Positions 14,991-15,598 are shown, counted from the first letter of the stretch. The stretch: DNA of 32,000 bases from Xanthomonas campestris pv. campestris str. ATCC 33913 (GCF_000007145.1 NC_003902.1:4376497-4408496); one strand, 5' to 3'. Notes: generated from the letters alone by a model not told the origin. Numbers and translations: made by a program.

Positions 14991-15374
14991 ATGCACGACA
15001 GCCCCCTGCGCGGCCGCCGCATCCTGGTGGTCGAAGACGATTATTTGCTGGCCGAATCGCTCAACGATCTATTGGCCGAGGCCGGTGCCAAGGTGGTGGG
15101 GCCGGTGGGCAACGTGCCCGAAGCACTGTCATTGGTGACATCGGGGATCGGCATCGATGGCGATCTGCTGGATGTCAACGTGCGCGGCCAGGCGGTGTTC
15201 CCGGTGGCCGATGCGTTGCTGGCGCGTGGCGTGCCGTTTTCGTTCTGCTCCGGCTACGACCGCTACACGCTGCCGCAACGGTATGCGCATCTGTCGTACT
15301 GCATGAAGCCCTACAACCCGCGCACCATCACCACGCTACTCAGCCGCCAGCAGGCGCCCGTCGAACATCACTGA
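14991..15374 (+). CDS. Single-domain response regulator (CheY-like receiver only), 127 aa
   Basis: ATG at 14991 with GGAG 7 nt upstream. The full receiver signature is present: LVVEDD, LLDVNV (phospho-Asp), FCSGY, MKPY. No output domain. Divergent from the HWE kinase gene. Confidence 0.88.
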   Translation: MHDSPLRGRRILVVEDDYLLAESLNDLLAEAGAKVVGPVGNVPEALSLVTSGIGIDGDLLDVNVRGQAVFPVADALLARGVPFSFCSGYDRYTLPQRYAHLSYCMKPYNPRTITTLLSRQQAPVEHH

Positions 15375-15598
15375 TCGGCCGTATCCGGCGCGGTTTCTAC
15401 GGGCGGCTGCAGCGCGCGTTCTTCTTCGCCCAGCTGATTGAGCAGCTCCACCGCGGACTGGTGCGCGGTGCGCAGGGTGTCCAGCGGTTTGGAAGGGGCT
15501 TCCGCGCGCAGCGAATACAGCGCGAAGCCCATCACATTGAGCCGGTTACGCAACTGATGCATGAGCTCGCGGCGACGCAGGTGGGCCGCATCGCTCAC
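15368..15598 (-). CDS. 76-aa free-standing H-box / DHp-like helical hairpin protein (hypothetical)
   Basis: The GTG start overlaps the TGA of the upstream activator gene (GTGA, 15595-15598). Codons are GC3-rich throughout. ...RRELMHQLRNRLNVMGFALYSL... resembles a histidine-kinase H-box, and a second helix-like segment (PLDTLRTAHQSAVELLNQL) follows. Confidence 0.55.
   Translation of the reverse strand: MSDAAHLRRRELMHQLRNRLNVMGFALYSLRAEAPSKPLDTLRTAHQSAVELLNQLGEEERALQPPVETAPDTADQ

Follow-up and report, generated by a model that had tools for sequence, protein, structure and literature searches.

The window analysed here is a stretch of 32,000 nucleotides from Xanthomonas campestris pv. campestris str. 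ATCC 33913 (GCF_000007145.1 NC_003902.1:4376497-4408496). Our subject is a small gene within it, XC_3759, which directly follows a gene for an NtrC-type sigma-54 activator. The NtrC-type gene is identified as xibR (XC_3760) by three published primers for that gene of X. campestris pv. campestris 8004, all of which have exact matches in the window, at the start, the stop and the D55A site; the length of XibR has been given as 433 aa (PMC5130282). Its product carries the Pfam domains Response_reg, Sigma54_activat, AAA_lid_14 and HTH_8. A sequence-only reading of the window, made without database searches, had described a 76-aa open reading frame (ORF) at 15368-15598 whose GTG start overlaps the xibR stop as GTGA and whose 3' end overlaps a convergent receiver gene by 7 nt. 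It had suggested that the product could be a stand-alone DHp, the sensor-kinase hairpin for dimerization and histidine phosphotransfer. The coordinates bear this layout out, the stops of the mini gene and of the convergent receiver ORF (end 15374, plus strand) overlapping by 7 nt. All features are collected in Table 1.

Table 1. Features of the XC_3759 locus, in positions of the window.
Feature	Position	Strand	Details
Mini-protein gene XC_3759	15368..15598	-	76 aa from the coupled GTG; the public 64-aa model begins at an internal ATG (Met13), one residue ahead of His14
GTGA stop/start overlap of xibR and the mini gene, translational coupling	15595..15598	-	GTG 15598-15596, xibR TGA 15597-15595
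Shine-Dalgarno-like AAGGA	15605..15609	-	6 nt 5' of the GTG, inside the final xibR codons
H-box-like motif, residues 12-27	15518..15565	-	L-M-H14-Q-L-R-N18-R-L-N-V-M-G-F-A-L; His14 is the CAT codon 15557-15559
Predicted helix 1, residues 2-31	15506..15595	-	AlphaFold2; 10-residue blocks over residues 11-30 at pLDDT 92-96
Predicted helix 2, residues 38-63	15410..15487	-	AlphaFold2; core dN/dS 0.08
Variable C-terminal tail, residues 64-76, probably disordered	15371..15409	-	pLDDT 49-66; dN/dS 0.66; length differs among species
xibR (XC_3760), 433 aa, receiver + sigma-54 AAA+ + Fis-type HTH	15595..16896	-	Pfam, NCBIfam; D60 codon 16717-16719
Convergent single-domain receiver gene (XC_3758)	14991..15374	+	ORF opens at 14916, likely start near 14991; possible but dispensable upstream partner
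CheB-CheR-PAS-PAS-HWE histidine kinase, 1185 aa	11256..14813	-	Pfam; divergent from the receiver gene; candidate input kinase, though dispensable

The sequence-only reading knew of no described protein of this type attached to an NtrC-family gene. XC_3759 is uncharacterised, but the gene itself is already annotated: it is listed as 'Hypothetical protein, 64 aa', and one Tn5 insertion in it appears in Table S1 of the same study (PMC5130282). No later paper mentioning XC_3759 was found in the literature searched. The mini-protein is annotated in both lengths, with 64 aa (P0002, from Met13) and, in some strains, with 76 aa (P0001), and some orthologues bear the automatic UniRef names 'Histidine kinase' or 'dimerisation/phospho-acceptor domain-containing protein'. 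The closest homologue is 97% identical and comes from X. campestris, and the homologues in the first homologue search were all from Xanthomonas.

XC_3759 is a genuine gene under strong selection, and its coupling to xibR is conserved. The ORF lies directly 3' of xibR in 31 of 31 species-level Xanthomonas loci and also in Xanthomonas-type metagenome loci. A start codon is found 12-14 codons ahead of the His in 34 of 34 loci (GTG in 32, ATG in 2), each time preceded by AAGGA or AAGGG at a distance of 6-7 nt. The junctions between the two genes in the 31 species read GTGA, TAGTG, TAATG, or abutting TAA-GTG or TAG-GTG, which together with the conserved start and ribosome-binding signals supports the translational coupling to the sigma-54 activator that had been proposed. 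The internal ATG behind the 64-aa annotation, a model that would remove the first third of helix 1, occurs in X. campestris only, and 28 of the 34 loci have no alternative in-frame start; therefore the coupled 76-aa start is the real one.

Selection was estimated by the Nei-Gojobori method over 495 species pairs. The ratio of nonsynonymous to synonymous substitution (dN/dS) of the mini gene is 0.18 overall, 0.08 in the structured core at a dS of 0.88, and 0.66 in the C-terminal tail. Comparison of orthologous loci, one of the checks that the sequence-only reading had suggested, thus came out in favour of the gene: the ORF is retained in all Xanthomonas loci and His14 is invariant across the genome loci. 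Occasional broken copies exist, for instance P0041, which is frameshifted in one draft genome. The coding signal, which had been called rich in G+C at third codon positions (GC3), is coding-like (GC by codon position 0.77/0.44/0.77), although its GC3 is weaker than that of the neighbouring genes (0.70/0.43/0.88). This lower GC3, and the numerous long spurious ORFs of a window with 65% GC, would suit a non-functional sequence, either a chance ORF in GC-rich DNA or the decaying remnant of a former cognate kinase gene. Such an origin is effectively excluded by the in-frame dN/dS of the core, by a start and Shine-Dalgarno sequence that are conserved while GTG and ATG interchange, by a second clade that has kept the gene free-standing at about 35-40% identity, and by the transposon phenotype and microarray signal described below.

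From the family alignment AlphaFold2 predicts a pair of helices with a short connecting loop, behind which comes a tail modelled at low confidence. The mean pLDDT is 82.6, with values above 90 across most of both helices and about 62 structured residues, and in the single chain the helices form an antiparallel hairpin like that of a HisKA DHp. The second helix and the lack of an ATPase domain, both already read from the sequence, are thereby confirmed, as Pfam finds no HATPase_c or other ATPase domain in the 76-aa protein. The stop of the mini gene is overlapped at once by the convergent gene, which leaves no room for a lost domain. An a/d heptad pattern and additional hydrophobic residues (V22, F25, Y28, V50, L52), read from the sequence, fit dimerisation but do not prove it. 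The Hpt domain (PF01627) gave no match, and only two helices are predicted, whereas Hpt is a monomeric four-helix bundle with an H-x-x-K-G motif.

The family is narrow. A profile search among 1.8 billion representative proteins gave eight matches at E <= 0.001, none of them a kinase, and retrieved only the Xanthomonas family plus a few metagenomic proteins of 63-73 aa. No longer protein carrying the hairpin was found among these representatives, and so there is no fused ancestor to point to a partner domain. Two candidate relatives, P0043 and P0044, were discarded as low-complexity or repeat artefacts. The members fall into two clades, Xanthomonas and an outgroup, which are 33-41% identical overall and share the invariant residues L12, H14, L16, R17, N18, R19, N21, G24, F25, A26 and L27.

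The motif L-x-H-x-L-R-N-R-L-N-x-x-G-F-A-L of this family stands in register with the HisKA H-box. HisKA (PF00512) is the only recurrent Pfam match, being the top match in 20 of 33 Xanthomonas members and in four of six outgroup proteins; the window protein scores 14.5 bits (E 0.039), the best of the 33 orthologues 16.6 bits (E 0.0083) and the outgroup proteins 14-15 bits. In every match His14 falls on position 11 of the HisKA profile, the position of the phospho-His in three bona fide HisKA proteins. Residues 12-54 also align to positions 300-343 of the NCBIfam BarA model, the acceptor of BarA being, as we take it, His302. We further compared the two-clade family alignment by hhalign with a small alignment of real HisKA hairpins, for which the templates were three proteins recovered with an HK853-like DHp query. 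His fell on His with a score of 25.1 and P = 3.3e-4, a score reached by none of 200 column shuffles of the query (mean 9.5, sd 2.0, max 16.4), with a one-residue shift ahead of the conserved Gly relative to HisKA. The family thus has the His at the conserved position of helix 1 and a likeness to HisKA beyond chance. It does not have the canonical motif H-E/D-x-x-T/N-P, its own being H-[Q/E/K]-L-R-N-R-L.

The H-box had originally been aligned with that of the neighbouring HWE kinase. The six identities in 14 positions are correct as read, but they are at the level of chance: hhalign against 17 orthologous HWE DHp segments gave a score of 13.2 (P 0.1), which 10 of 100 shuffles equalled, and a likeness beyond chance was therefore rejected. 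Single-sequence hhalign comparisons with the neighbouring HWE DHp and with a CrbS-like DHp find the correct register without significance. The Pfam profiles SPOB_a, HPTransfase, HisKA_2 and HWE_HK have no match at E <= 1 in the mini-protein family. Hence the idea of a stand-alone DHp hairpin gains from in-register Pfam HisKA matches in two divergent clades, which are sub-threshold, and from a profile-profile score that no shuffle reaches; the motif is HisKA-like, not HWE-like. From the sequence comparisons we conclude that the mini-protein carries a HisKA-like H-box, that its hairpin has a fitting size, and that homology to HisKA is probable, not proven.

The putative partner, XibR, has an intact receiver catalytic set as read from the sequence (DDD16-18, D60, S87, K109). 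The published 'phosphorylation-site' mutant, XibR D55A, alters the first numbered Asp of F-P-D55-L-L-V-V-D60-V-G-L-P-D-G (window 16717-16734, minus strand, codons 55-60). By comparison with P-D49-V-L-L-S-D54-I-R-M-P-G-M-D-G of NtrC, the canonical acceptor of XibR is D60, not D55, and therefore D55A may not have probed the phosphorylation dependence of XibR. In X. populi CFBP1817 (L023, about 4516-6228) xibR is apparently frameshifted near codon 387, before the HTH, and the frame reads stop-free into the intact mini frame. The predicted product joins XibR(1-387) through a linker to the mini-protein, and either a genuine pseudogene or fusion or a mistake in the assembly may lie behind it.

XibR has been described as an orphan with a 'yet-unknown sensor kinase' (PMC5130282). 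In the microarray of the xibR mutant the XC_3759 probe is down by 2.13 log units (p = 0.010), so the transcript exists. The Tn5 insertion in XC_3759 lies within helix 2, at codon 32 of the 64-aa model (Table S1, PMC5130282). The mutant has a siderophore halo ratio of 0.92 +/- 0.13, compared with 0.26 for the wild type and 2.61 for xibR mutants (PMC5130282). This is a partial xibR-like phenotype, in the direction expected if the mini-protein helps XibR work.

We tentatively propose that XC_3759 is a minimal HisKA-type DHp protein acting as a histidine phosphotransferase for XibR. Put more generally, it is quite possible that an ATPase-less two-helix DHp serves as the dedicated phospho-histidine module of a sigma-54 activator and is the missing input of orphan XibR. 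If all readings of this kind are taken together, some DHp-like module probably sets the phosphorylation state of XibR. The helix-loop-helix hairpin would homodimerise into a four-helix bundle and expose His14 in the H-x-L-R-N-x-L H-box. Because the GTG start overlaps the xibR stop, the mini-protein and XibR would be made in a constant ratio. Lacking an ATP-binding domain, the mini-protein cannot autophosphorylate or be a kinase; His14 would take the phosphoryl group from a phosphorylated receiver and hand it to Asp60 of the XibR receiver. Candidate donors are the single-domain receiver next door, which the HWE kinase would supply in species that have it, and receivers that belong to hybrid kinases encoded elsewhere; such a relay would join the 'orphan' XibR to upstream sensors. 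Of these steps we infer dimerisation, docking on XibR, the phosphorylation of His14 and the direction of transfer.

In proposing phosphotransfer we liken the mini-protein to Spo0B of Bacillus, ChpT of Caulobacter and PhyK/PhyT of the alphaproteobacterial general stress response, in which a kinase-type hairpin with a transfer His shuttles phosphate between receivers and has no autokinase activity. The known relay order is kinase, single-domain receiver, transferase and output regulator, and here HWE kinase, receiver, mini-protein and regulator stand side by side in most species. Precedents are the relay from the single-domain receiver MrrA through PhyK to PhyR (PMC5964349) and the DHp-based transferase ChpT (PMC3433190). 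Spo0B, ChpT, PhyK and PhyT, however, keep a degenerate CA-like alpha/beta domain behind the hairpin and have at least 200 aa, whereas the mini-protein is a hairpin only, the second domain being absent. Its partner would also differ, as it is a sigma-54 activator.

With the HisKA DHps of EnvZ, NtrB and BarA the mini-protein has in common R/K at +3, N/T at +4 and L at +6 from the His as well as the two-helix hairpin; unlike them it has neither a sensor domain nor HATPase_c, scores below threshold, and has Arg for Pro at +5 and mostly Gln for Glu/Asp at +1. As in a classic regulator-kinase operon, 4 nt are shared between the mini gene and the gene of its putative partner regulator ahead of it, and an overlapping or abutting junction is conserved in all Xanthomonas loci, but not in the outgroup. 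The nearest functional parallels are the engineered DHp-only polypeptides EnvZ 'domain A' and NtrB 'H domain', which form dimers, can be phosphorylated in trans and remove phosphate from the cognate regulator, in the NtrB case one of the NtrC family. These are laboratory truncations, whereas the mini-protein would be a naturally evolved and selected DHp-only gene. No description of a natural DHp-only protein was found in the literature searched, the coverage of which is incomplete, and as far as could be checked there is no earlier description of a DHp that consists of a free-standing hairpin alone and is coupled to a sigma-54 activator.

Several observations weigh against a HisKA-type phosphotransferase. 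The profile search that the sequence-only reading had called for did single out HisKA, but with 14-17 bits its gathering threshold of 26.9 bits is missed, and no HWE_HK, HisKA_2, Spo0B-type or Hpt match came with it. His+5 is Arg and never Pro, and His+1 is mostly non-acidic (Q, E or K, mostly Gln). Sequence searches of the PDB, by profile and by single sequence (queries A1, A3 and P0013), yield no kinase, the family profile being too narrow, and Foldseek against the PDB retrieves generic helical hairpins alone, all at E > 0.1, which does not discriminate. In the outgroup the mini gene does not lie at a regulator stop codon; it follows a DUF2269 gene, or is divergent from cydAB beside copAB. 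The HWE kinase and the receiver are absent or fragmentary at the locus in about 8 of 31 Xanthomonas species, a convergent gene of about 320 aa taking their place, and therefore they are not obligate partners. The Tn5 phenotype is that of one uncomplemented insertion, listed in a supplementary table and situated where the xibR transcript has its 3' end, and the effect could act through xibR mRNA stability. Finally, either phosphorylation state of XibR could be the active one, so that the sign of the Tn5 phenotype is compatible with a phosphatase as well.

A phosphatase is also suggested by the residues around the His. Asn18, at His+4, is invariant in both clades while His+1 varies. In HisKA kinases the His+1 residue is needed for autokinase chemistry, and Thr or Asn at His+4 is the phosphatase residue. 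As a dedicated phosphatase the hairpin would dock on XibR~P and promote hydrolysis of the aspartyl phosphate via this Asn, and thus be a constitutive or titratable off-switch co-made with XibR. The isolated DHp domains of EnvZ and NtrB keep phosphatase activity toward OmpR~P and NtrC~P, translational coupling suits a stoichiometric modulator, and the absence of any need for an upstream donor suits the species without the HWE/receiver pair. If XibR~P is the active form, however, loss of a phosphatase should strengthen XibR, while the Tn5 mutant instead overproduces siderophore like xibR mutants. The invariance of His14 in the genome loci also speaks against this role, even though the phosphatase activity of some kinases can partly do without the His. 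On balance we consider a dedicated phosphatase unlikely.

The mini-protein could also act without any phosphate chemistry, by binding XibR (receiver or AAA+) or the DHp of a kinase. It would then be a stabiliser or co-activator, an anti-activator in the manner of NifL or PspA, or an Sda-like kinase mimic or anti-kinase. Sda is a small helical hairpin which acts on the DHp and has no H-box. Translational coupling, the strict co-occurrence with xibR in Xanthomonas and the missed HisKA threshold all agree with a plain binder, and a co-activator or stabiliser suits the partial xibR-like Tn5 phenotype. Stoichiometric binding of a sigma-54 activator by kinase-derived helical domains has a known example in NifL-NifA, where NifL controls its partner through binding and not phosphorylation (PMC12998190). 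NifL requires PAS and GHKL domains, unlike the mini-protein, and Pfam detected no sequence relation of the mini-protein to NifL or Sda. Yet it is precisely the H-box residues H, R, N and L (0, +3, +4, +6) that are invariant across clades of such low identity, which is more like an active site than a plain interface, and the outgroup copies do not adjoin a regulator gene. A non-catalytic binder therefore seems rather improbable to us; computation alone does not distinguish between a phosphotransferase, a phosphatase and a mimic.

The outgroup consists of metagenomic contigs of about 70-73% GC. Its gene order is enhancer-binding protein (EBP)-like receiver protein, Epimerase/DoxX, DUF2269, in part of the contigs cydBA, then the mini gene, copBA and a CrbS-like hybrid kinase. 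Where cydAB is missing from a contig, the mini gene and the stop of the gene for the DUF2269 membrane protein share 4 nt (L036 3017-3020, L037 911-914, L045 about 1045). From one lineage to another, therefore, the small protein is translationally coupled to a different gene upstream, and as the outgroup gene lies away from a regulator stop, the tight regulator coupling is specific to Xanthomonas. Common to both clades is the proximity of cydAB and, in some contigs, also an EBP-type receiver protein and a hybrid kinase. A 56-aa ORF after the outgroup EBP gene was considered as a paralogue of the mini-protein and rejected. The outgroup EBP-like protein (L032 410-1774; also L042, L044) has an intact receiver, but the GAFTGA sigma-54 contact motif is seemingly missing, the region reading ...GAEGGPRPAFARA..., and judged from this sequence it may not be a sigma-54 activator.

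Given that the conserved outgroup neighbours are Epimerase/DoxX-DUF2269, cydAB and copBA and not the 3' end of a regulator gene, the hairpin might function outside two-component signalling, tied for example to the neighbouring cytochrome bd, copper or envelope-stress genes, with a convergent likeness to the H-box. The narrowness of the family, with no kinase among its eight matches, would agree with this. It leaves the in-register H-box match that no shuffle reached unaccounted for, as well as the universal coupling to xibR in Xanthomonas, and in three outgroup contigs an EBP-type receiver protein lies upstream on the same strand. Moreover, cydAB (XC_3762/3763) and the neighbouring stress genes are XibR-activated in X. 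campestris, together with XC_3750, 3752-3756, 3761 and 3765-3767, so that the shared neighbourhood suits a regulatory role. We regard an unrelated function as very unlikely.

Some of these XibR-activated genes can be recognised in the window. At 17391-17702 (plus strand), upstream of cydA, lies a conserved 103-aa ORF without a Pfam family, whose identity across 16 Xanthomonas loci is 55-77%; judging by its place it is probably XC_3761, which is among the genes most dependent on XibR (-3.18). The stretch 6398-9765 (plus strand) encodes an isochorismatase, two DUF892 (yciE/yciF-like) proteins, a Mn catalase and a hydrophilic 114-aa ORF rich in Gly, Asp and Gln (9421-9765). This cluster coincides in part with the XibR-activated XC_3752-3756 and is similar to the yciGFE-katN stress operon of enterobacteria. 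A scan for sigma-54 promoters (TGGCAC-N5-TTGC) gave 55 matches against 61 expected, that is, no enrichment.

As to the kinases of the locus, the one at 11256-14813 (minus strand) is an unusual fusion of CheB methylesterase and CheR methyltransferase to PAS-PAS-HWE_HK, paired with the divergent receiver at 14916-15374 (plus strand). The pair is present or absent between Xanthomonas species as a whole, together with about 2 kb of poorly coding sequence (9340-11250). An obligatory four-gene relay, for which both HWE kinase and receiver would be required, was rejected because of the species that lack the pair. A LytS-type sensor kinase (His_kinase PF06580 plus HATPase_c) at 3219-4919 (minus strand) is unrelated to the mini-protein.

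XibR, a regulator of iron and virulence functions, controls siderophore production, motility, chemotaxis and virulence in Xanthomonas. Since XC_3759 is co-translated with the orphan XibR, it is an obvious candidate for the missing link in XibR phosphorylation, and a co-translated DHp-only partner makes the question of XibR input and phosphorylation state directly testable. To our knowledge, the DHp hairpin alone has so far been known only from laboratory truncations of EnvZ and NtrB. If the proposal is true, no smaller two-component protein for phosphotransfer (or phosphatase action) than XC_3759 would be known, and it would show that a DHp hairpin alone can be a free-standing natural signalling protein. 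Because such mini-proteins fall below domain thresholds, and XC_3759 is mis-started in addition (64 instead of 76 aa), censuses of two-component systems would miss connectors of this kind; the family would then define a new class of auxiliary two-component protein, one which genome censuses based on domains overlook.

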